Source: Enterobacteria phage vB_EcoM_IME540
Sequence record: MT150133.1
Reading direction: 5' to 3' (one strand)
Length of the DNA stretch: 64,000 nucleotides
Below the pieces are notes generated by a model. The model was not told the origin of the DNA. It did not search any database and saw nothing but the letters and a program-made list of their open reading frames with translations. Positions 1,687 through 60,983 of this stretch are shown piece after piece. Position numbers and translations under genes: made by a program. Positions within the stretch are counted from its first letter, which is position 1. Each line of letters opens with the position of its first letter.

Positions 1687-1714
1687 TTTGTTCTCCTCAT
1701 TAGTTGATAGGTCT

Positions 1715-1743
1715 ATAGTATCACGTTCCTAGAGGATGTAAAC
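1715..1743 (-). promoter_or_regulatory. sigma70-type early promoter (GTTTAC -17 nt- TGATACTAT)
   Basis: Minus strand reads GTTTACATCCTCTAGGAACGTGATACTATAGACCTATCAAC and contains the conserved 15-mer TACTATAGACCTATC. Confidence 0.7.
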
Positions 1744-1752
1744 ACCTAAACG

Positions 1753-1779
1753 AAAAAAGGTCCCACCGAAGTGAGACCT
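1753..1779 (-). terminator. rho-independent terminator
   Basis: Minus strand AGGTCTCAC-TTCG-GTGGGACCT followed by TTTTTT, directly after the stop of ORF 1784-2167. Confidence 0.75.
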
Positions 1780-1783
1780 TTGA

Positions 1784-6597: not shown

Positions 6598-7056
6598 TCA
6601 CAAGTAAATTACTTTCGTGCTGGTTTTACCTTCTAAACGTTTAGAGTTAACAAATGCCATACGACATTTAAGGGAATATCCTTTATCAGGATGTTTACGG
6701 TCTACTGTCATACCTAGCCATAAGGTTTTATCGGTAATTTCGAGACGCAATGGCCGATACACTTTACCAGGGACAATTTCGGATTCTACATCAGGCAGAG
6801 GTTCCTGGATTAAGAATTCATGGATTTCTTTAACATGGTTATGGAGTTGCTTGAATAAAGCAAAAACGTATTTTTCGTCGATTTCACGTTGGATAGCACG
6901 GTCCAACAAGTGGTTAGAGTACTTAATAAAGAAGGCTGGGACTCCGCTCTTAATGGCGGCTTTTTTGATGGACGTATTCAGTTCACGGAATTCGGTTTCG
7001 AACTGACGACGTAATTTATTGCGGCGGATGAATACTTCTGAATTAATTTCTGACAT
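6598..7056 (-). CDS. regB: RegB site-specific endoribonuclease
   Basis: 152 aa. MSEINSEVFIRRNKLRRQFETEF...LLDRAIQREIDEKYVF...YRPLRLEITDKTLWLG matches recalled T4 RegB (153 aa) throughout. Confidence 0.9.
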   Translation of the reverse strand: MSEINSEVFIRRNKLRRQFETEFRELNTSIKKAAIKSGVPAFFIKYSNHLLDRAIQREIDEKYVFALFKQLHNHVKEIHEFLIQEPLPDVESEIVPGKVYRPLRLEITDKTLWLGMTVDRKHPDKGYSLKCRMAFVNSKRLEGKTSTKVIYL

Positions 7057-7063
7057 TTTGTAA

Positions 7064-7106
7064 TCTCCTGTAGTTGATAGGTCTATAGTACCACGTCTAC
7101 AGGAGA
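7064..7106 (-). promoter_or_regulatory. 10-bp inverted repeat pairing the promoter spacer with the regB Shine-Dalgarno
   Basis: Minus strand TCTCCTGTAG (just after the -35) ... CTACAGGAGA (SD, 7 nt before the ATG). The loop holds the -10 and the start site. Confidence 0.7.
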
Positions 7107-7113
7107 TGTAAAC
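7085..7113 (-). promoter_or_regulatory. early promoter (GTTTAC -17 nt- TGGTACTAT)
   Basis: GTTTACATCTCCTGTAGACGTGGTACTATAGACCTATCAAC upstream of regB, with the conserved 15-mer. Confidence 0.75.
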
Positions 7114-7117
7114 TGCT

Positions 7118-7327
7118 TTATTCTTGGAATGGGGTAAGTTTTCCAGCAGCTGAACAAATTTCTACCAGTACAGGGTAAAACTCTTTCACTTGTTCAAGGC
7201 GTTGGGCTGCATACTGTACTTCACCTTCTTCGAGACAAGCCATTTGGTCGTCAAGCAAGTATTTGTGGTAGCCAGTACAGGCTTCACCGATGATACGCTG
7301 GAAATCTTGTAAACTTTCAATTTTCAT
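7118..7327 (-). CDS. hypothetical protein (69 aa)
   Basis: Track ORF trimmed to the ATG at 7327, which forms an ATGA overlap with the upstream stop. Confidence 0.55.
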   Translation of the reverse strand: MKIESLQDFQRIIGEACTGYHKYLLDDQMACLEEGEVQYAAQRLEQVKEFYPVLVEICSAAGKLTPFQE

Positions 7328-9118: not shown

Positions 9119-9148
9119 ATTCTATCACGGATTTAATTAAGCGTAAAT
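9119..9148 (-). promoter_or_regulatory. candidate early promoter (ATTTAC -18 nt- TGATAGAAT)
   Basis: Extended -10 TGATAGAAT lies 26 nt upstream of the IP ATG. The -35 lies in the last codons of denV. Confidence 0.4.
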
Positions 9149-9553
9149 AGCCTTGCCATAATGTTTGTACCAGGTAGGACGCTGTGCAATTTTTTCATCC
9201 AAACGGGTCTGAGATATAGCAATAGAAGCTTCGTGTGGAGTATAGTCACCACGGAATTCCTGAGGAATGCCACTAATGTCCTGGACAGTAGTATCCTTGA
9301 TATTAAAACCACGTTTTAAACATTCGGCTATAAGCTCAATTTGTCGCTTACGTAAAAATTCAAGCTTATCGTAAAAGAATGTAACATGGCCTGTGCCAAG
9401 GATAAAAGTAGGACTGATTTTGAAATCACGGACACGTTTACCATTAGCAACATGCTTACGAACTGCACCGAAAACACGTGGTAATTCACGATATTCAGCC
9501 ATTAAGTGTTGGTCGGCCAATTCAGATACTAAGGTAAGGTTGATACGAGTCAT
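9137..9553 (-). CDS. denV: endonuclease V (pyrimidine-dimer DNA glycosylase)
   Basis: 138 aa, as in T4. [28 protein letters not shown]...[13 protein letters not shown] closely matches T4 DenV. Confidence 0.95.
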
Positions 9554-9559
9554 TTTTTA

Positions 9560-9602
9560 ATCTCCTGTAGTTGATAGGTCTATAGTATCATGCCTACAGG
9601 AG
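9560..9602 (-). promoter_or_regulatory. 10-bp inverted repeat pairing the promoter spacer with the denV Shine-Dalgarno
   Basis: Minus strand GTTTACA-TCTCCTGTAG-GCATGATACTATAGACCTATCAA-CTACAGGAGA-TTAAAAAATG. The arms are perfect. Confidence 0.7.
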
Positions 9603-9609
9603 ATGTAAA
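9581..9609 (-). promoter_or_regulatory. early promoter (GTTTAC -17 nt- TGATACTAT)
   Basis: Conserved 15-mer present. Drives denV. Confidence 0.75.
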
Positions 9610-9610
9610 C

Positions 9611-10009
9611 TTATTTATAGGTTTTCATCCAATTCTTGAACAAAGCTGCGACGTCTTTCTCTTTAACGTTCAGTTTAACGTCCAACATTTTACCACCGGC
9701 AGCACGTGTCTGACGAATCTTAGCAGTACCGGTTTCGCCATTCCACTCAACATAATACTGTCCGGTGTTCATTGCAATACCGTCGCCGTAGTCTTCATTT
9801 TTAGAAGTGGTGAATGCCAGCTTCATAGTCTTAGATACACGAGCCTGCATGCCTGTCTGAAGGGCATTACGAACGCGAATAACCTGAGGAGTGGCCTGGG
9901 TCAGGTTTTCATTCAGTTCTTCAGTGAACTCTTCAGATTCAAACATCGCCAAAAGTTCTTTAGATGCAGGAATTACATTCTCTGCGATAAATTCATTATA
10001 AGTTTTCAT
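9611..10009 (-). CDS. internal head protein (IP) with capsid-targeting sequence
   Basis: [10 protein letters not shown]|NV... 132 aa. Lies between e and denV, where T4 has ipIII/ipII. The body is unrelated to the other IPs in the window. Confidence 0.7.
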
Positions 10010-10490
10010 ATGCTTTCCAAGTACCTGTTTTAAATGTGGAAATCACGCGCTTAGCACGATTAGGAGTTTGTTTATACCAACGGGATTGAGCCAGGTTAAC
10101 TGCTGCATCATCCCAACGTTTTTGCTGAAGCATACGCAGAGAGTTAGTGAACCCTGCTACGCCTGCTTCACCCATTTGGAAGACCATGTTAATTAAAGCA
10201 CAACGACGAACTTCGTCCAGTACATCATAAACAGGTTTCAATTTAGGATTACGCAGAATAGCTCTACGAGCATTTTCAACCGACCGGTTAAAGAGTTGTT
10301 CGGCTTCAGCCATAGTAATACGACCATTGCAAACTCGACCCATAAGCTTATCAAGTTCAGCCCGAGCAACATCTTTAGAAGGATTCTTAGTAATCAATTG
10401 GCCAATACCAATAGTATAGTATCCCTCAGTATCCTTATATAAGTCTAATTTACAGCCTTCATCAAGGCGTAACATATCAAAAATATCCAT
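9996..10490 (-). CDS. e: endolysin (T4 lysozyme)
   Basis: 164 aa, as in T4. [30 protein letters not shown]...[27 protein letters not shown]...[20 protein letters not shown]. Confidence 0.96.
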
Positions 10491-10491
10491 A

Positions 10492-10520
10492 ATACCTCCT
10501 GAGTATAGGAGGTATTTATA
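10492..10520 (-). promoter_or_regulatory. gene e late promoter TATAAATA plus SD-sequestering hairpin
   Basis: Minus strand TATAAATACCTCCTATACTCAGGAGGTATTATG. The 9-bp stem ATACCTCCT/AGGAGGTAT buries the SD, and the late start falls inside the hairpin. Same arrangement as known for T4 e. Confidence 0.75.
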
Positions 10521-12705: not shown

Positions 12706-12742
12706 TTTATTCTCCATTTCACTCTGTTGTTTTGATAGGTCT

Positions 12743-12771
12743 ATAGTATCACACCTATAGACCTTGTACAC
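12743..12771 (-). promoter_or_regulatory. early promoter (GTGTAC -17 nt- TGATACTAT) with 10-bp palindrome
   Basis: Minus strand GTGTACA-AGGTCTATAG-GTGTGATA-CTATAGACCT-ATCAAAAC. Arms lie at 12737-12746 and 12755-12764. Confidence 0.65.
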
Positions 12772-17661: not shown

Positions 17662-17686
17662 TATGTTCTCCTCAAATTATGGGCTC

Positions 17687-17716
17687 ATAATATCTTAATC
17701 ATGAGCCCATGTAAAC
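17687..17716 (-). promoter_or_regulatory. early promoter (GTTTAC -18 nt- TATTAT) with 10-bp inverted repeat
   Basis: Minus strand GTTTAC-ATGGGCTCAT-GATTAAGATATT-ATGAGCCCAT. Arms lie at 17679-17688 and 17701-17710. Confidence 0.65.
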
Positions 17717-17719
17717 GTT

Positions 17720-17983
17720 TTATTTCATATTATTGAAATAATTTTCTGCATCAAAATCATTACCATGGTAAACTTTGGTAGACGATTTGGCGTAACCTTC
17801 AGCTGAGAACATATTAATCACAACTTTAATTGTATACCACTGTCCATCTTCATTACCCATTACTGCATAGGTTTCATACACCGGGTGTTCAGGACCGATA
17901 ACCTTAATATCGTTAACTGTGGCACCAAATTCTTCCGGAACGCATTTCATAAAGAAATTAAACACTTCACCATAATTATCCAT
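17720..17983 (-). CDS. hypothetical protein (87 aa)
   Basis: Track ORF starts at a GTG; trimmed to ATG 17983, which is preceded by GGAGAGTAAA. Confidence 0.55.
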   Translation of the reverse strand: MDNYGEVFNFFMKCVPEEFGATVNDIKVIGPEHPVYETYAVMGNEDGQWYTIKVVINMFSAEGYAKSSTKVYHGNDFDAENYFNNMK

Positions 17984-18018
17984 TTTACTCTCCTTCACTC
18001 TGTTGTTTTGATAGGTCT

Positions 18019-18047
18019 ATAGTATCATGTTTAAAGGAGGTGTAAAC
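18019..18047 (-). promoter_or_regulatory. early promoter (GTTTAC -17 nt- TGATACTAT)
   Basis: Conserved 15-mer present. The spacer CCTCCTT is complementary to the downstream SD AAGGAG. Confidence 0.7.
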
Positions 18048-18068: not shown

Positions 18069-18098
18069 ACAAAAAAGGCCCAACCTTTCGGAAGGGCC
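18069..18098 (-). terminator. rho-independent terminator (copy 1 of a 30-nt direct repeat)
   Basis: Minus strand GGCCCTTCC-GAAA-GGTTGGGCC followed by TTTTTTG, after the stop of ORF 18104-18658. Identical 30-mer at 18692-18721. Confidence 0.75.
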
Positions 18099-18952: not shown

Positions 18953-19027
18953 TGGTATCCCGCCCTGGGATCGAACCAGGACCGCAAACTTAGAAGGATC
19001 GTATGCTATCCATTACACCAGCGGGAC
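18953..19027 (-). tRNA. tRNA-Arg (anticodon UCU), CCA encoded
   Basis: GTCCCGCTGGTGTAATGGATAGCATACGATCCTTCTAAGTTTGCGGTCCTGGTTCGATCCCAGGGCGGGATACCA. The cloverleaf folds by hand: 7-bp acceptor stem, T arm CCTGG-TTCGATC-CCAGG, anticodon loop CTTCTAA. Confidence 0.9.
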
Positions 19028-19739: not shown

Positions 19740-19810
19740 TGGCCCTGGGTGGAATCGAACCACCATCCAGCGATTATGAGTCGCTCGCTTGACCGTCCAG
19801 CTACAGGGCC
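19740..19810 (-). tRNA. tRNA with anticodon CAU (elongator Met, or Ile if lysidine-modified)
   Basis: GGCCCTGTAGCTGGACGGTCAAGCGAGCGACTCATAATCGCTGGATGGTGGTTCGATTCCACCCAGGGCC(A). 7-bp acceptor stem, anticodon stem AGCGA/TCGCT with loop CTCATAA, T arm GGTGG-TTCGATT-CCACC. CCA not encoded. Confidence 0.85.
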
Positions 19811-21707: not shown

Positions 21708-21744
21708 TTTGATTTCCGTTTGGTTAGTTTGTTTTGATAGGTCT

Positions 21745-21773
21745 ATAGTATCATGCCTATAGACCTTGTAAAC
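21745..21773 (-). promoter_or_regulatory. early promoter (GTTTAC -17 nt- TGATACTAT) with 10-bp palindrome
   Basis: Minus strand GTTTACA-AGGTCTATAG-GCATGATA-CTATAGACCT-ATCAAAAC. Arms lie at 21739-21748 and 21757-21766. Confidence 0.7.
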
Positions 21774-50570: not shown

Positions 50571-50599
50571 GTTTTTACTTTTATAGCAAATTATGATAG

Positions 50600-50607
50600 T
50601 ATAAATA
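50600..50607 (+). promoter_or_regulatory. late promoter TATAAATA
   Basis: Exact motif, intergenic, 30 nt before ATG 50638. Confidence 0.65.
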
Positions 50608-50637
50608 CATTCAAACAATGAAGTCAAGGAGTTTAGA

Positions 50638-51219
50638 ATGTATTGTACTTACTTAACCATATACACGGGGTCTAAACTACCCCGTCGTTATATTGGCTCA
50701 ACATACGTTGAAAGGATTCTCAAAGAAGGATATAATGGTTCTGTATTATCCCAAGCATATAAAAAGATTTGGAATCTAGAACGTAAAGAAAATCCGCACC
50801 TTTTCAAAACCAGAATTTTATCTTTATTTGAAACCGATAAAGAAGCTCGTATAGCTGAGAAAGAGCTTCAAATAAAGTATAATGTAGTTAAATCTAAAAA
50901 CTATATAAATATGTCATTAGCTCAGCCTGACGGGTTCTTTGGAATGTCTCGTAAAGGGATTCCAATGAGTGAACATGCCAAACAGCTACAAAGAGATTGT
51001 AGGTTAGGTAAAAAGAGGCCTGAACATTCTAAAGCTCTAAAAGGACGTAAGCGACCAGACCAAGCCAAAGCTATGTCTGGTGAAGGTAATCCGATGTTTG
51101 GTAAAGAACATCCGGCTAAAGGCAAAAAGATTAATCAGCCAAGGATGATTTGCCCTATCTGTGGTGTTGAATCAACTCGTTCGGCTATAACACGTTATCA
51201 CAAACATGAAAATGAATGA
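50638..51219 (+). CDS. GIY-YIG homing endonuclease between genes 19 and 20
   Basis: 193 aa. MYCTYLTIYTGSKLPRRYIGSTY...GYNGS (GIY-YIG type). NUMOD3-like repeats (PMSEHAKQLQ, RPEHSKALKGRKRP, GEGNPMFGKEHPAKGK). C-terminal CPICG zinc motif. Confidence 0.75.
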   Translation: MYCTYLTIYTGSKLPRRYIGSTYVERILKEGYNGSVLSQAYKKIWNLERKENPHLFKTRILSLFETDKEARIAEKELQIKYNVVKSKNYINMSLAQPDGFFGMSRKGIPMSEHAKQLQRDCRLGKKRPEHSKALKGRKRPDQAKAMSGEGNPMFGKEHPAKGKKINQPRMICPICGVESTRSAITRYHKHENE

Positions 51220-55026: not shown

Positions 55027-56586
55027 ATGAAAAAGAATGCATTAGTTCAAAAATGGTCCGCTCTGCTGGAAAACGAAGCCCTTCCTGAAATCGTGGGTGC
55101 TTCTAAACAAGCTATCATTGCTAAAATTTTCGAAAACCAGGAACAAGATATTCTGACCGCTCCTGAATACCGTGACGAAAAAATCTCCGAAGCATTTGGT
55201 TCTTTCCTGACCGAAGCTGAAATTGGCGGTGACCACGGTTATGATGCTACCAATATCGCAGCTGGCCAGACTTCTGGTGCTGTAACTCAGATTGGGCCGG
55301 CAGTAATGGGTATGGTTCGTCGTGCTATTCCTCATCTGATTGCTTTTGATATTTGTGGTGTTCAGCCTCTGAATAACCCTACCGGCCAGGTATTTGCCCT
55401 TCGTGCAGTTTATGGTAAAGACCCTATCGCTGCTGGCGCTAAAGAAGCTTTCCATCCGATGTATTCTCCGGACGCTATGTTCTCTGGTCAGGGCGCTGCT
55501 GAAACTTTCGAAGCACTGGCTGCAAGCAAAGTTCTGGAAGTTGGTAAAATTTATTCTCACTTCTTCGAAGCTACCGGTGCTGCACACTTCCAGGCTGTTG
55601 AAGCCGTAACCGTTGATGCTGCTGCTACTGATGCCGCTAAACTGGATGCTGCTATTACCGCTTTGATTGAAGCTGGTAAGTTGGCTGAATTGGCTGAAGG
55701 TATGGCTACTTCTATCGCTGAACTTCAGGAAGGCTTTAACGGTTCCCAGGACAACCCGTGGAACGAAATGGGCTTCCGCATCGACAAACAAGTTATCGAA
55801 GCTAAATCCCGTCAGCTGAAAGCAAGCTATTCTATCGAACTGGCACAGGACCTTCGTGCAGTACACGGTATGGATGCAGATGCTGAACTGTCCGGTATCC
55901 TTGCTACCGAAATTATGCTCGAAATCAACCGTGAAGTTATCGATTGGATTAACTACTCTGCACAGGTTGGTAAATCTGGTATGACCAACACCGTTGGCGC
56001 TAAAGCTGGTGTGTTTGACTTCCAGGACCCGATTGATATCCGTGGTGCTCGTTGGGCCGGTGAGAGCTTTAAAGCCCTTCTGTTCCAGATTGATAAAGAA
56101 GCAGCCGAAATCGCTCGTCAGACCGGTCGTGGTGCTGGTAACTTCATCATCGCTTCCCGTAACGTAGTTAACGTACTGGCTGCAGTTGATACTTCTGTAA
56201 GTTATGCAGCTCAAGGTCTGGGTCAAGGTTTCAACGTTGACACAACCAAAGCAGTATTTGCCGGTGTTCTTGGTGGTAAATATCGCGTTTACATCGACCA
56301 GTATGCACGTTCCGATTACTTCACCATCGGTTATAAAGGCGCTAACGAAATGGACGCAGGTATCTACTATGCTCCGTACGTTGCACTGACCCCGCTGCGT
56401 GGTTCCGATCCGAAGAACTTCCAACCGGTAATGGGCTTCAAAACTCGTTACGGTATCGGTATCAACCCGTTCGCTGACCCGTCTGCACAGGCTCCTACCA
56501 AACGTATTCAGAGCGGTATGCCTGACATCGTTAACAGCCTTGGTCTGAATGGTTACTTCCGTCGCGTATATGTTAAAGGTATCTAA
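55027..56586 (+). CDS. 23: gp23 major capsid protein precursor
   Basis: 519 aa (T4 521). Long matching stretches to recalled T4 gp23, including AIIAKIFENQE, GSFLTEAEIGGDHGY and the C-terminal FRRVYVKGI. Confidence 0.98.
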   Translation: MKKNALVQKWSALLENEALPEIVGASKQAIIAKIFENQEQDILTAPEYRDEKISEAFGSFLTEAEIGGDHGYDATNIAAGQTSGAVTQIGPAVMGMVRRAIPHLIAFDICGVQPLNNPTGQVFALRAVYGKDPIAAGAKEAFHPMYSPDAMFSGQGAAETFEALAASKVLEVGKIYSHFFEATGAAHFQAVEAVTVDAAATDAAKLDAAITALIEAGKLAELAEGMATSIAELQEGFNGSQDNPWNEMGFRIDKQVIEAKSRQLKASYSIELAQDLRAVHGMDADAELSGILATEIMLEINREVIDWINYSAQVGKSGMTNTVGAKAGVFDFQDPIDIRGARWAGESFKALLFQIDKEAAEIARQTGRGAGNFIIASRNVVNVLAAVDTSVSYAAQGLGQGFNVDTTKAVFAGVLGGKYRVYIDQYARSDYFTIGYKGANEMDAGIYYAPYVALTPLRGSDPKNFQPVMGFKTRYGIGINPFADPSAQAPTKRIQSGMPDIVNSLGLNGYFRRVYVKGI

Positions 56587-56635: not shown

Positions 56636-56902
56636 TTATGCAATCTTAACTCGGCGGTTGATGATATCACGGAAGTCAATACGATTTTCTTGGATTTTCA
56701 GCCAGTTACCAGATTTGTCTTTGGTATGGGTAGAGTATTCACCGTTCCACCAGAAGTCGGTAGCATAAGCCATGGCTTCGTATTTCTTAACTAAGGCATT
56801 CACTGCATTACCATTAGGATTGTTACCGAATTTTTCTACCAGAGCTTTGATGTCTTTATCAAGAGCGGAAAGAGTAGTACGAATAAAGTTTAACTTGTTC
56901 AT
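56636..56902 (-). CDS. hypothetical early protein (88 aa) antisense to the late cluster
   Basis: Trimmed to ATG 56902 (GAGGAG SD). Has its own early promoter at 56932-56961. MNKLNFIRTTLSALDKDIKALVEKFG... No family recognised. Confidence 0.6.
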   Translation of the reverse strand: MNKLNFIRTTLSALDKDIKALVEKFGNNPNGNAVNALVKKYEAMAYATDFWWNGEYSTHTKDKSGNWLKIQENRIDFRDIINRRVKIA

Positions 56903-56931
56903 TTTTAATCTCCTCATGTTTTGATAGGTCT

Positions 56932-56961
56932 ATAGTAACATGTGAGAATCTTGCTGTAAAC
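56932..56961 (-). promoter_or_regulatory. early promoter (GTTTAC -18 nt- TGTTACTAT)
   Basis: Conserved 15-mer TACTATAGACCTATC present. Interleaved with the plus-strand late promoter of gene 24. Confidence 0.7.
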
Positions 56962-57003: not shown

Positions 57004-58287
57004 ATGGCAAAGATTAACGAATTACTGCGCGAGTCAACAACTACTTCCAGCAACTCATTGGGTCGCCCTAATCTTGTTGCTTTGACCCGTGCTACAACCA
57101 AATTGATTTACCGTGATATTATCGCCGAACAACGTACTAGCCAGCCTATTGCTGCACTGTATGGTGTCAAATATCTTACCCCTGATAATGAATTTAGTTT
57201 CCAGACAGGTGCCTCTTATGGTGGTGAAGTTGGTTCTAAAGACCGTGAAACTATCCCAGAACTCACAGATAAGGCCCAGGCGATTGCTCAGGGTGAATAT
57301 TTCAAGTACCAGAATGTGGTTTATAAGGCTCTTAAAGCAAGCCCACTCGCGTCCACTAGCGCCACAGAATTGGCTGATGCTCTTCAAGAAGGTTTAGTGT
57401 CATTAACATGTCGTCTGGTTCCTGATGCTGCCCATACCACTAAATTTGAAGCGAGTGATGTAGAAATCTCTGATGCTGTATTCCAGGTTAATAAATGGAA
57501 TGCTCCGGTTAAGACCCGTAAATTGAAGACGGCTTTGACTGTAGAATTAGCGCAGGATATGGAATCAAATGGCTTTGACGCGCCGGCGTTCTTAGAAGAC
57601 CTCTTGGCTACAGTAATGGCAGATGAAATTAATAAAGACGTTCTGCAATCTCTAATAACCGTATCCAAACGTTATAAAGTTACTGGTGTATCTGATAACG
57701 GCATCATCGATTTGTCTTATGACAGTGCTCCTGAATCTGCACGTAAACTTTATGAACTCGTTTGTGAGATGAATTCTGAAATCCAGAAAACTACTTCTTA
57801 TTCTGGCACGTTTGTTGTGGCTTCAAGTCGTGTGGCTGCAATGCTTGCAGGTTCTGGCTGGTTAAAACATAAACCCGAAGATAATAATTGGCTTCCGGAA
57901 ACTGCATACGGATATTTGTTGAATGGTCTGCCTCTGTTTTGTGACGTTAACAGTCCATTAGATTATGTTACCGTTGGTGTTAAAGAGAATTACGGCGGTA
58001 ATGAAGTTGTCGGTTCTATTTTCTACGCTCCCTATACCGAAGGCTTAGATTTAGATGACCAAGAACACGTCGGTGCTTATAAGGTTATTGTTGACCCGGA
58101 TTCATTACAACCTTCTATTTCTCTGATGGTTCGTTATGCACTATCAGCTAACCCGTACACCGTGGCTAAAGACGATAAAGAAGCTCGTGTTATCGATGCA
58201 ACCAATATGGATTTAATGGCTGGACAGAGCAATATGTCTTATCTGGTTGGCGTTAAACTTCCGGCAATTATTTACGAGGCTGATTAA
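57004..58287 (+). CDS. 24: gp24 head vertex protein precursor
   Basis: 427 aa, as in T4. MAKINELLRESTTT..., RKLKTALTVELAQDMESNGFDAP and RYALSANPYTVAKDDKEAR match T4 gp24. Confidence 0.95.
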   Translation: MAKINELLRESTTTSSNSLGRPNLVALTRATTKLIYRDIIAEQRTSQPIAALYGVKYLTPDNEFSFQTGASYGGEVGSKDRETIPELTDKAQAIAQGEYFKYQNVVYKALKASPLASTSATELADALQEGLVSLTCRLVPDAAHTTKFEASDVEISDAVFQVNKWNAPVKTRKLKTALTVELAQDMESNGFDAPAFLEDLLATVMADEINKDVLQSLITVSKRYKVTGVSDNGIIDLSYDSAPESARKLYELVCEMNSEIQKTTSYSGTFVVASSRVAAMLAGSGWLKHKPEDNNWLPETAYGYLLNGLPLFCDVNSPLDYVTVGVKENYGGNEVVGSIFYAPYTEGLDLDDQEHVGAYKVIVDPDSLQPSISLMVRYALSANPYTVAKDDKEARVIDATNMDLMAGQSNMSYLVGVKLPAIIYEAD

Positions 58288-59567
58288 TGTCTAAGATTGT
58301 AGACCTAATTAAAGAATCCACATTGACGGCTGCCAGCTCGGTTGGCCGTCCTGCTCTTCTTTCATACACCCAAGCAACTAATAAACGAATCTTTAAAGCC
58401 CTAGTTGCTGAACAAAAAACAAATCAACCGGTTGCTGCTCTGTATGGGGTACGTGTACTGAATCCTGACGACAAAATGACTTATCTTGGTGGAGCAACAT
58501 TTGCGGGCCAGATTGGTATGACGGAACGTGAAAATATTCCAGAATTTACTGATTCATCTACAGCTTATGCGGTCGGTGATATGTTCCAGTTTGAAAGCGT
58601 AGTGTTTAAAGTTCTAGAAGCATCTCCTTTCGCCGGAACCACAGAAACCAACCTCAGCGAAGTTATTTCTGAAGCAGTGGCAGCCGGCCATATCCGTATG
58701 GCGTCGGATGCTGCTATTACTTCTAAATTTGAACAAGGCCATCCTGAAATTGCTGAAACCGGATTCCGTATCGACAAATGGCAATCTGAAGTTAAATCGC
58801 GTAAACTGAAAACTTCATTGACAGTCGAATTAGCCCAAGACCTAGAATCTAACGGGTTTAATGCTCCTAATTTCGTTGAAAATCTGCTAGGCATTCAAAT
58901 GGCAGAAGAAATTAATAAGGATGTATTACAGTCATTAATTACCGTGAGCTCTCGTTTTAAAGTCCAGGGTGTTTCTGAAAAGGGTGTATTAGACCTTACC
59001 AACCCTCGCTACGATAATGCCCAGGACCGTGCTCGCACATTATATTATTATATGTGTGAGATGAACTCTGCCGTCCAACGACAGACTTCTTTTGCCGGGA
59101 CTTATGCAGTAGCTAGTTCTCGTTGTGCTGCTATTCTCGCCGCCTCTGGTTGGGTTGAGAAAAAGGAAGACCAGGACGAATTGGCTTATGGTATATTAAA
59201 GAATGGCCTACCACTTTATGCTGATATGAATAGTCCATGTGATTATGTTATTGTTGGTGTAAATGCCCAGATGGGTGAAGGACAGACGGTCGCATCTTTA
59301 TATTATGCGCCTTATACGGAAGGTTTGAATGTGGTTGACGAAGAAGGTGATACTTCAGTTGGTGAATTTAAGGTTATTGTTGACCCGGAAAGCTTACAAC
59401 CTACAGTAGCATTGCTTGCTCGTTATGCATTGACTGCAAACCCTTATACCGTCGCTAAGGACGATAAAGAAGCCCGCATTATTGATGGTTCTGATATGGA
59501 CAAAATGGCTAATCAAAGTCAATTGAGTTCTTATCTCGGCGTAAAATTACCGCCTTTAGAAAAATAA
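58287..59567 (+). CDS. second gp24-family vertex protein paralogue
   Basis: 426 aa, collinear with the upstream gp24; roughly half the positions are identical by eye. Keeps the propeptide MSKIVDLIKE|S and RKLKTSLTVELAQDLESNGFNAP. TAATG junction. Confidence 0.85.
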   Translation: MSKIVDLIKESTLTAASSVGRPALLSYTQATNKRIFKALVAEQKTNQPVAALYGVRVLNPDDKMTYLGGATFAGQIGMTERENIPEFTDSSTAYAVGDMFQFESVVFKVLEASPFAGTTETNLSEVISEAVAAGHIRMASDAAITSKFEQGHPEIAETGFRIDKWQSEVKSRKLKTSLTVELAQDLESNGFNAPNFVENLLGIQMAEEINKDVLQSLITVSSRFKVQGVSEKGVLDLTNPRYDNAQDRARTLYYYMCEMNSAVQRQTSFAGTYAVASSRCAAILAASGWVEKKEDQDELAYGILKNGLPLYADMNSPCDYVIVGVNAQMGEGQTVASLYYAPYTEGLNVVDEEGDTSVGEFKVIVDPESLQPTVALLARYALTANPYTVAKDDKEARIIDGSDMDKMANQSQLSSYLGVKLPPLEK

Positions 59568-60714: not shown

Positions 60715-60924
60715 TTACTTTGAACTAGAACGCGCTTTGCGCCGAACCTTGTTGTTCAATCTTTTACGATAAACAACCTTTTCTTTCGCTTTAAATTTGG
60801 CCTTGGCTTGTTCTACATCAACCCATGCTTTGGCCATGTCCTTAGCGGTCCCACCCATTTTTTTAGCAATTTCTATAAAATTCAACCCAGATTCGTGTAA
60901 AAAATGTACTTTAACCTTATCCAT
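60715..60924 (-). CDS. hypothetical small basic protein (69 aa), T4 24.2/24.3 position
   Basis: Trimmed to ATG 60924, because the track 5' extension covers the promoter. MDKVKVHFLHESGLNFIEIAKKMGGTAKDMAKAW... looks HTH-like, with a Lys/Arg-rich tail. Confidence 0.55.
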   Translation of the reverse strand: MDKVKVHFLHESGLNFIEIAKKMGGTAKDMAKAWVDVEQAKAKFKAKEKVVYRKRLNNKVRRKARSSSK

Positions 60925-60953
60925 AACAATTCTCTCGTTGAGTTGGTAAACCC

Positions 60954-60983
60954 ATCTTAACATAGAATTTTTAACTTGTAAAC
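60954..60983 (-). promoter_or_regulatory. early promoter (GTTTAC -18 nt- TGTTAAGAT)
   Basis: Minus strand GTTTACAAGTTAAAAATTCTATGTTAAGAT, 30 nt upstream of ATG 60924. Confidence 0.5.

Follow-up and report, generated by a model that had tools for sequence, protein, structure and literature searches.

Upstream transcripts predicted to hide a translation start

In phage T4, transcripts that reach gene e from upstream fold into a hairpin in which the Shine-Dalgarno sequence (SD) and/or AUG are sequestered, and an inner promoter yields an RNA that omits the 5′ arm; soc, 49, I-TevI, mobE and segB are organised likewise (PMC3014915). For gene e the function of the hairpin has been established experimentally (PMC3014915). 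The inner promoter in this group is late (gp55) or middle, and translation is delayed to the late period. Here we describe a comparable arrangement upstream of denV and regB in a 64,000-nucleotide stretch (the window, meaning the whole of the DNA analysed) of Enterobacteria phage vB_EcoM_IME540 (MT150133.1), a T4-type, JS98/QL01-like phage of the genus Dhakavirus for which Escherichia phage QL01 is the best match (96.5% identity over 2 kb). In contrast to the gene e group, the promoter at denV and regB is a sigma-70 immediate-early one, the -10/+1 region itself forms the hairpin loop, and the effect is predicted to be opposite, with translation confined to the earliest period. The feature is real at both genes and conserved across T4 relatives. 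Neither regB nor denV, nor any early-promoter case, is among the examples in a 2010 review of post-transcriptional and translational control in T4 (PMC3014915).

The promoter-stem-loop cassettes known as PeSL (Arbiol 2010; Comeau 2014) share with the two loci an AT-rich upstream region, a sigma-70 early promoter, a stem-loop, an SD with ATG, repeated copies and signs of recombination. In the accessible portions of those papers the stem-loops are compact, are placed before, inside or directly behind the promoter boxes, and are taken to be recombination sites and to terminate or attenuate transcription; JS98 is mentioned there only in passing. The pairing of promoter spacer with SD differs from the classes set out in those portions, none of which has the SD as its 3′ arm and for which a translational role is not proposed. 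Of the features that define a PeSL, a promoter, a stem-loop and repeated intergenic copies were found at denV and regB, and the terminator feature was not (no U-tract, no terminator call). Intrinsic terminators likewise place a stable hairpin in upstream RNA, but the hairpins at denV and regB have no U-tract, carry a loop of 23 nt and are not called by a terminator scan.

A tie of translation to a gene's own promoter is reportedly also found in the fold-back inhibition of IS10/Tn10, which Davis, Simons and Kleckner are said to have described in 1985: external transcripts carry a segment from ahead of the start of the element's own sigma-70 promoter that pairs with the transposase ribosome-binding site, and transcripts from that promoter lack it. 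Sequestration of the IS10 translation signals in secondary structure is on record (PMC13181058). The logic is the same, but IS10 is a transposon and a single case, not a promoter family. Valerie et al. reportedly remarked in 1986 that the sequences preceding T4 ipIII, ipII, denV and orf61.9 can form stem-loops, so the T4 hairpins themselves were probably seen long ago. A literature search for anti-SD arms in early promoters found no description of one, the older T4 literature lying outside its reach. The logic is known from gene e and IS10, and the cassette is of the PeSL class; the placement of the anti-SD arm in an early promoter is new.

Architecture of the denV and regB cassettes

At denV (9561-9603) and regB (7064-7106) an arm within the promoter spacer pairs perfectly with the SD over 10-11 bp. 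Coordinates of both cassettes, and of the minor sites described below, refer to the minus strand of the window. The elements are as follows.

9611-10009, minus strand: nudE-like open reading frame (ORF) upstream of denV, with a stop (9611-9613) that abuts the -35 box; proposed source of read-through RNA
9604-9610, minus strand: -35 region of the denV early promoter, G-TTTACA (sequence and promoter scans)
9594-9603, minus strand: 5′ arm of denV (anti-SD), TCTCCTGTAG, within the 16-nt promoter spacer (sequence, folding, covariation)
9582-9590, minus strand: extended -10 of denV (TGa-TACTAT; hexamer 9587-9582), in the 23-nt hairpin loop (sequence and promoter scan)
9575, minus strand: predicted transcription start of denV, the seventh nt past the -10 box (from promoter geometry)
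9561-9570, minus strand: 3′ arm of denV, CTACAGGAGA, which is the SD, with GGAG at 9562-9565 (sequence, folding)
9137-9553, minus strand: denV coding sequence (endonuclease V), ATG at 9553 (phrog_1183, E = 2e-62)
7107-7113, minus strand: -35 region of the regB early promoter, box at 7112-7107 (sequence and promoter scans)
7097-7106, minus strand: 5′ arm of regB, TCTCCTGTAG, in the promoter spacer (sequence, folding)
7085-7093, minus strand: TGn and -10 of regB, TACTAT (hexamer 7090-7085), in the loop; predicted start near 7078 (promoter scans)
7064-7073, minus strand: 3′ arm of regB, CTACAGGAGA, which is the SD (sequence, folding)
6598-7056, minus strand: regB coding sequence (endoribonuclease), ATG at 7056 (phrog_1323, E = 7e-72)

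Read along the minus strand, the denV cassette runs G-TTTACA, TCTCCTGTAG, gca-TGa-TACTAT, agacctatcaa, CTACAGGAGA, ttaaaaa, ATG, and the stem gains an eleventh pair from A9604 and T9560. The regB arms have the same sequences, and there too a flanking A/T supplies the eleventh pair. These perfect arm pairs had been noticed in a preliminary description of the window, whose coordinates proved right to within 1 nt. Both cassettes have a GTTTAC -35, a 16-nt spacer and an extended -10, and both are called by two promoter scans; an AT-rich upstream region, a sigma-70-like early promoter and a terminal SD with ATG are present in each.

The 5′ arms lie about 19 nt upstream of the predicted starts (9575 and 7078), so that only RNA entering from upstream could sequester the SD. 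The predicted leader is about 22 nt long and begins 5 nt ahead of the SD arm. Between the end of the upstream ORF and the 5′ arm there are 7 nt at denV (the nudE-like ORF) and 11 nt at regB (stop at 7118-7120). No terminator-like site was called by the terminator scan at the hairpins or between the upstream ORFs and the arms, and no U-tract follows either hairpin, which are succeeded by UUAAAAAAUG and UUACAAAAUG. A scan of the whole window with Rfam 15 at the gathering score left the hairpins unmatched and returned only two tRNA genes (18956-19027 and 19740-19810, minus strand).

Folding of read-through and local transcripts

The accessibility of each start region was expressed as the ensemble energy needed to open positions -15 to +3, from SD to AUG, in read-through and in promoter-proximal RNA. 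As a control within the window, the promoter segment was shuffled 40 times per site. Opening the regB SD costs 14.1 kcal/mol in read-through RNA against 1.6 kcal/mol in local RNA, and the corresponding values for denV are 10.9 and 2.3 kcal/mol; at neither gene did any of the 40 shuffles reach the native value, the shuffled promoter segments giving 3.4-4.0 +/- 1.1-1.6 kcal/mol. The preliminary description had proposed a comparison of the folding energies of the two kinds of 5′ end, and this was made with a second, independent folding tool. The 66-nt read-through RNA of denV folds at -19.3 kcal/mol (z = -5.2) and that of regB at -19.2 kcal/mol (z = -3.25), a stability that none of 200 shuffles matched in either case, as against 0 (denV) and -1.4 kcal/mol (regB) for the 28-nt promoter-proximal RNAs.

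The hairpin of gene e, which the preliminary description had placed at 10492-10520, is indeed present in the window and served as a positive control.

10491-10520, minus strand: gene e control hairpin, with late box TATAAATA (10520-10513) overlapping the 5′ arm AATACCTCCT (10516-10507), 3′ arm AGGAGGTATT (10500-10491) and ATG at 10490

By the same measure its opening cost is 15.3 kcal/mol in T4 and 14.9 kcal/mol in the window, versus 0.3-4.7 kcal/mol for late transcripts. The roughly 15 kcal/mol at gene e is similar to the 11-14 kcal/mol calculated for denV and regB.

Cassette classes in the window and in related contigs

The cassette core TACTATAGACCTATCAA occurs in six copies in the window. 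A scan of viral contigs with this core found 73 loci, which together with the window gave 61 unique promoter cassettes that fall into three classes. Class A cassettes have 10-12 bp of pairing between the spacer arm and the SD. This class comprises four gene families, namely denV and regB (TCTCCTGTAG/CTACAGGAGA), an nrdC.8-like gene (TCTCCAGTAG/CTACTGGAGG) and an ndd.4-like 36-aa peptide (TCTCCATTAG/CTAATGGAGA), and the differences between the arms of these families are compensatory. Class B cassettes have a spacer arm complementary to the -10/+1 region (as in AGGTCTATAG/CTATAGACCT and its variants); their hairpin ends before the start, and the SD stays unpaired. Cassettes of class C have no long stem.

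In read-through RNA, class-B hairpins hold the SD more open than their shuffled controls do: at 17715 all 40 shuffles were at least as closed as the native sequence, as were all 20 at T4 ipI. Such a design seems to be "insulating", the converse of masking. Class-B sites on the minus strand of the window were located at 21739-21766, 12737-12764 and 17680-17709 and in the 17258 and 21205 regions; a further example of such a pair is TGGGCTCAT/ATGAGCCCA.

Covariation was scored for 20 unique TCTCC-type cassettes (family A1). Of the cells of the 11-bp helix, 87.3% are paired, compared with 80.7 +/- 1.4% after shuffling and 33-53% in slid controls, and the covariation score is 0.178 against 0.070 +/- 0.019, a value that none of 500 shuffles attained. 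Pair 13-45 is UA in ten cassettes, AU in six and UG in four; pair 14-44 is GC in twelve and UA in three.

Conservation across T4 relatives

The denV arms of T4 are identical to those in the window. T4 regB has a different pairing of 15 bp, TTTTCCTCTTGACTG/CAGTTAAGAGGAGAA, which includes two G.U pairs. Among regB orthologues the anti-SD arm, with varied extensions, is kept in four of five IMG/VR lineages and in T4. One further regB lineage has a perfect 15-bp pairing (TTTCTCCTCTTTATG/CATAAAGAGGAGAAA), and in two lineages an outer anti-SD helix is nested round an inner class-B helix.

For denV, 35 distinct upstream sequences were collected from T4-like phage records of about 120-180 kb and compared with 25 shuffles each. 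Nearly all of these records have a hairpin over the SD. Its 3′ arm always covers the SD with or without the AUG, and often runs through the AUG; its 5′ arm takes up part of the spacer or else overlaps the -10 box and discriminator, and in either position it precedes the predicted start. Arms in the spacer are exemplified by TTCCTCCAAG/CTTGGAGGAA, TCTCCGTTTG/CAAACGGAGA and TTCTCCTGTAGATG/CATCTACAGGAGAA, and an arm over the -10 hexamer and discriminator by TATGATGTCTTCC...GGAGGACATCATG. At least ten different arm sequences occur in this set. The opening cost is 7.5-24 kcal/mol in read-through RNA versus 1-4 kcal/mol in local RNA, and in 32 of the 35 sequences none of the 25 shuffles reaches the native value. 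The exceptions are denV homologues in phages of about 350 kb, where a TTGACT promoter lies within a GC-rich hairpin. In four such contigs of 345-380 kb (L118, L119, L123 and L126) the hairpin containing the TTGACT -35 is followed by a T-run (GGGTTGACTTCGGTCAGCCCTTTTT) and the SD is unmasked; this overlap of terminator and promoter at the denV of jumbo phages resembles the RB49-type PeSL.

Exchange of promoters between lineages lowers the calculated masking. With its native promoter the denV leader has an opening cost of 14.7 kcal/mol, as against 7.6 kcal/mol with the promoter of another lineage (868 swaps), and for regB the values are 11.1 and 5.7 kcal/mol. In the denV sequences whose 5′ arm lies over the -10 box (L095-L129, alignment A2), RNAalifold finds a helix that couples variants of the -10 hexamer to the bases before the AUG, with pair counts of AU:7, GC:4, GU:3 and GC:5, AU:5. 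Bases four and five of the -10 (TATGAT, TATAGT, TATAAT) change in step with the triplet just ahead of the AUG (ATC, ACT, ATT). As judged from these alignments, promoter sequence is directly coupled to the translation initiation region.

The early region of T4 was scanned (loci L172, L173, L074 and L174) for strong early promoters closely followed by a start codon, of which there are 40. The cut-off for masking was a difference of at least 6 kcal/mol between read-through and local RNA together with 0 of 20 shuffles, and 11 of the 40 promoters pass it. The earlier suggestion that anti-SD arms are built into early promoters was thus right, and applies more widely than had been claimed. Masked in T4 are mrh.2, modB, motB.2, nrdC.8, gene 1, denV, regB, ndd.4, alc and alt.-3, with e.8 and 30.8 borderline by the energy criterion. 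Four of these genes (denV, regB, nrdC.8 and ndd.4) are masked in both T4 and JS98-type phages, and e.8 only in T4, where it is borderline. Since the class A families of JS98-type phages include the orthologues of T4 nrdC.8 and ndd.4, the property follows the gene across genera even as the arms differ. The promoter-hairpin cassettes of T4 alc (136278) and alt.-3 (123032), both in locus L174, are near-identical (..CCTCGTGTTGTGTTATAGTAGTCTTACT.ACATAACATGAGGA..) and lie 13 kb apart.

Proposed mechanism and alternative explanations

On the computational and comparative evidence we consider it probable (roughly 0.7) that the arm embedded in the promoter masks the SD in read-through RNA and leaves it free in RNA from the local promoter. 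The early-promoter cassette would consist of a GTTTAC -35, a spacer of 16-17 nt, an extended -10, a short leader, the SD and ATG, with the DNA upstream of the start encoding the anti-SD arm. Local initiation would produce a leader of about 22 nt in which the SD has no partner and which would hence be unstructured and translatable. RNA from upstream, namely the e-nudE message including late e transcripts in the case of denV, and that of the preceding ORF in the case of regB, would hold both arms, and the SD, once transcribed, would snap into a hairpin of 10-11 bp with the -10/+1 region as its loop. This hairpin would block binding of the 30S subunit and should also shield the GGAG from RegB. 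Since the genes are ordered e, nudE, denV, transcription of late e RNA would continue into denV, and such RNA would be kept silent for denV by the hairpin. Protein would then come only from the gene's own immediate-early promoter, and synthesis would be limited to the first minutes despite later read-through RNA; it is likely that the proteins concerned are made only while early promoters fire. The sequences, the predicted energies, the conservation and the covariation are shown by the analysis, whereas the start sites, formation of the hairpin in vivo, its effect on translation and what the arrangement is for are matters that we infer.

Several observations weigh against this interpretation. 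The predicted start sites rest on promoter geometry. Ribosomes that finish the upstream ORF 7-11 nt before the arm may open the outermost pairs of the stem, although one that terminates at 7 nt could open about 3 of the 11 pairs, probably too few to free the SD. In vivo, the SDs of regB, motB.2 and nrdC.8 are cleaved by RegB (PMC1702504, PMC3014915), which is compatible with masking only if most RNA in the early period comes from the local promoters. Effects on mRNA stability or on cleavage by RegB cannot be separated here from translational masking. In T4, masking showed no association with the lack of an upstream intrinsic terminator (a terminator is present at 2 of 12 masked and 6 of 28 unmasked promoters; Fisher p = 1). 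The strand comparison gives little direction: in the orthologue set, chosen regardless of folding, G.U pairs number 26 on the sense and 22 on the antisense strand, and the overall excess of 2 kcal/mol in stability of the sense strand (p = 0.009) is driven by the T4 set, which had been selected on sense-strand folding. Most early promoters in the window (21772, 12770, 17715, 17258 and 21205), as well as T4 ipI, ipII and ipIII, carry a hairpin of the class-B type. Because these leave the SD free, a promoter stem-loop is not always an anti-SD device and must have at least one other role.

Pairing is also broken in natural variants without obvious harm. The nrdC.8-like gene of JS98 (L065) is a chimera with an ndd.4-type 5′ arm and its own 3′ arm, which match at 8 of 10 pairs; the MKTIDCK family (L003, L023, L050 and L062) has a denV-type 5′ arm, of which the shortened leader CTTGGAGAAC leaves 5-6 bp; and one regB lineage (L080-82) has a class-B stem only, with its SD free. 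Such chimeric cassettes are consistent with recombination inside the cassette loop, and they bear on an alternative that we regard as unlikely, in which a PeSL-type cassette acts on transcription, by attenuation or termination, and doubles as a recombination site of about 60 bp for the shuffling of early genes, its contact with the SD being incidental. PeSLs that combine a promoter, a stem-loop and an SD with ATG and are repeated in hyperplastic regions have been described, and one stem-loop of RB49 cut the expression of a downstream lacZ like a strong terminator (PMC2839356, PMC4122927). The repetition of the core in the window and the number of unique cassettes once relatives are included agree with such a role, as do the chimeric and mismatched cassettes, the different spacer types found at orthologous genes and the near identity of the denV and regB cassettes over about 60 bp in the window phage. 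The two hairpins themselves, however, have 23-nt loops and lack the U-tract and the terminator call. Moreover, the 3′ arm tracks the SD and AUG across lineages despite shifts in position, length and sequence, which neither a terminator nor a recombination site would need, and recombination accounts for the spread of cassettes but not for the covariation of unrelated arms in T4 and other genera. Another proposal is that one ancestral palindromic cassette was copied to several genes by recombination and its pairing never selected. Within the JS98 group denV and regB do share almost the same cassette and cannot count as independent events. Yet there are at least ten unrelated arm sequences at denV and about five at regB in different genera, the changes are compensatory, native combinations beat swapped ones, and shuffles fall short of the native value at both genes in the window, so that chance or hitch-hiking is strongly disfavoured, to the point of being scarcely credible.

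A hairpin selected for RNA stability is a rather poor prospect as the whole explanation. The paired GGAG would here protect read-through RNA from RegB, or the stem would act as a 3′ stabiliser of the upstream cistron, with masking secondary. RNA structure does protect GGAG from RegB and RegB cleavage triggers decay (PMC3014915, PMC1702504), the SDs GGAGAUUAAAA and GGAGAUUACAA are near the strong RegB consensus GGAGRAYARAA, and regB is itself among the genes concerned. The GGAG of T4 denV, however, is in the same stem and is RegB-resistant anyway through its 3′ context (PMC1702504); where the 5′ arm overlaps the -10, the stems reach over the AUG, which points to translation initiation and not to GGAG alone; and shielding would act alongside translational masking, not replace it. 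A role of the DNA itself, with the inverted repeat bound as an operator by a dimeric protein of phage or host (for instance in early-promoter shut-off) or forming a cruciform, appears very improbable. The repeat is centred on the -10/+1 region, the mechanism by which T4 early promoters are shut off is not fully understood (PMC3014915), and the small G.U asymmetry between strands is compatible with DNA pairing. But arms that vary by gene and lineage with their complementarity kept are the signature of a nucleic-acid helix and not of a protein site; the SD always forms one of the arms, loops of 14-23 nt make extrusion of a cruciform less likely, and the U.G pairs of several lineages would be A.C mismatches on the other strand.

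Masking of the SD in read-through RNA is the reading we prefer for denV and regB, and it can be extended, tentatively, to a broader scheme. The non-transcribed part of early promoters might serve as a per-gene switch for the translation of read-through RNA, with about a quarter of them "masking" and many others "insulating". The masked set may consist of proteins, several of them toxic enzymes, that are perhaps made only in the first minutes.

Other sites in the window

The preliminary description had proposed that read-through RNA would hide the SD at further loci, and these gave mixed results.

56909-56947, minus strand: imperfect version, with 5′ arm TCTC-A-CATGTT (56947-56937, from the spacer into the first -10 base) and 3′ arm AACATG-AG-GAGA (56920-56909) over the SD; ORF start at 56902
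60928-60969, minus strand: candidate absent from the preliminary description, with spacer arm AATTCT.TGTT (60969-60959) and AACG..AGAATT (60939-60928) over the SD; promoter at 60982, ATG at 60924
17990-18040, minus strand: 6-bp pairing CTCCTT/AAGGAG (18039-18034 with 17995-17990), present, at chance level
1694-1736, minus strand: imperfect pairing TCCTC/GAGGA, at chance level

The imperfect version at 56903-56961 held up well, with an opening cost of 11.0 kcal/mol in read-through and 1.3 kcal/mol in local RNA and no shuffle of 40 as high. The candidate between 60982 and 60924 gave 9.7 and 3.5 kcal/mol, again with 0 of 40 shuffles as high. The 6-bp version at 17990-18039, in front of the ORF at 17720-17983, is present, yet it yields only 4.1 versus 1.0 kcal/mol and 23 of 40 shuffles do as well; the imperfect version at 1687-1743 gives 5.2 versus 2.3 kcal/mol, equalled by 16 of 40 shuffles. 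The proposed occlusion is supported for denV and regB, where the predicted energies approach that of gene e and covariation is lineage-specific and includes T4; at the ORF at 17720-17983 and at 1687-1743 the pairing is indistinguishable from the shuffled controls. Intrinsic terminators (GGCCCTTCCGAAAGGTTGGGCCTTTTTT and AAAGGTCTCACTTCGGTGGGACCTTTTTT, at 18071-18098 and about 1753-1781, minus strand) lie directly upstream of both promoters with weak pairing (18046 and 1742).

On the plus strand, 50574-50638 contains a promoter-like TTTACT, a 17-nt spacer and TAGTAT followed by a start codon, whose SD is predicted to be masked in read-through RNA (11.1 kcal/mol versus 3.3 kcal/mol, with none of 40 shuffles as high). 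The site falls in a late-gene region on the opposite strand and may not be a genuine promoter. The major capsid gene (55027-56586) is followed by two paralogous ORFs in tandem (57004-58287 and 58287-59567, plus strand; 427 and 426 aa), which resemble each other and seem to represent a vertex protein of the gene-24 type in duplicate. A small minus-strand ORF (56636-56902) with its own early-promoter cassette separates the capsid gene from the 427-aa copy.

Implications for T4-type phages

Early genes of T4-type phages are packed end to end with few terminators, so that most of them are carried by several transcripts that overlap. An arm that worked as predicted would explain how certain proteins can be made in a short immediate-early burst although read-through RNA persists. 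The proteins concerned include a nuclease that destroys early mRNA and an endonuclease of DNA repair, joined in T4 by ModB and Alc. The arrangement would add an unlisted class to the translational controls of T4 and offer a functional reading for part of the PeSL stem-loops. Covariation between the promoter, even its -10 hexamer, and the translation initiation region would be a constraint on promoter evolution, and would matter for annotation and for the design of synthetic insulators. The identical denV cassette in T4 makes the prediction directly testable there. The per-gene switch, if true, would be an extra layer in the abrupt shut-off of early protein synthesis, one not systematically described before.

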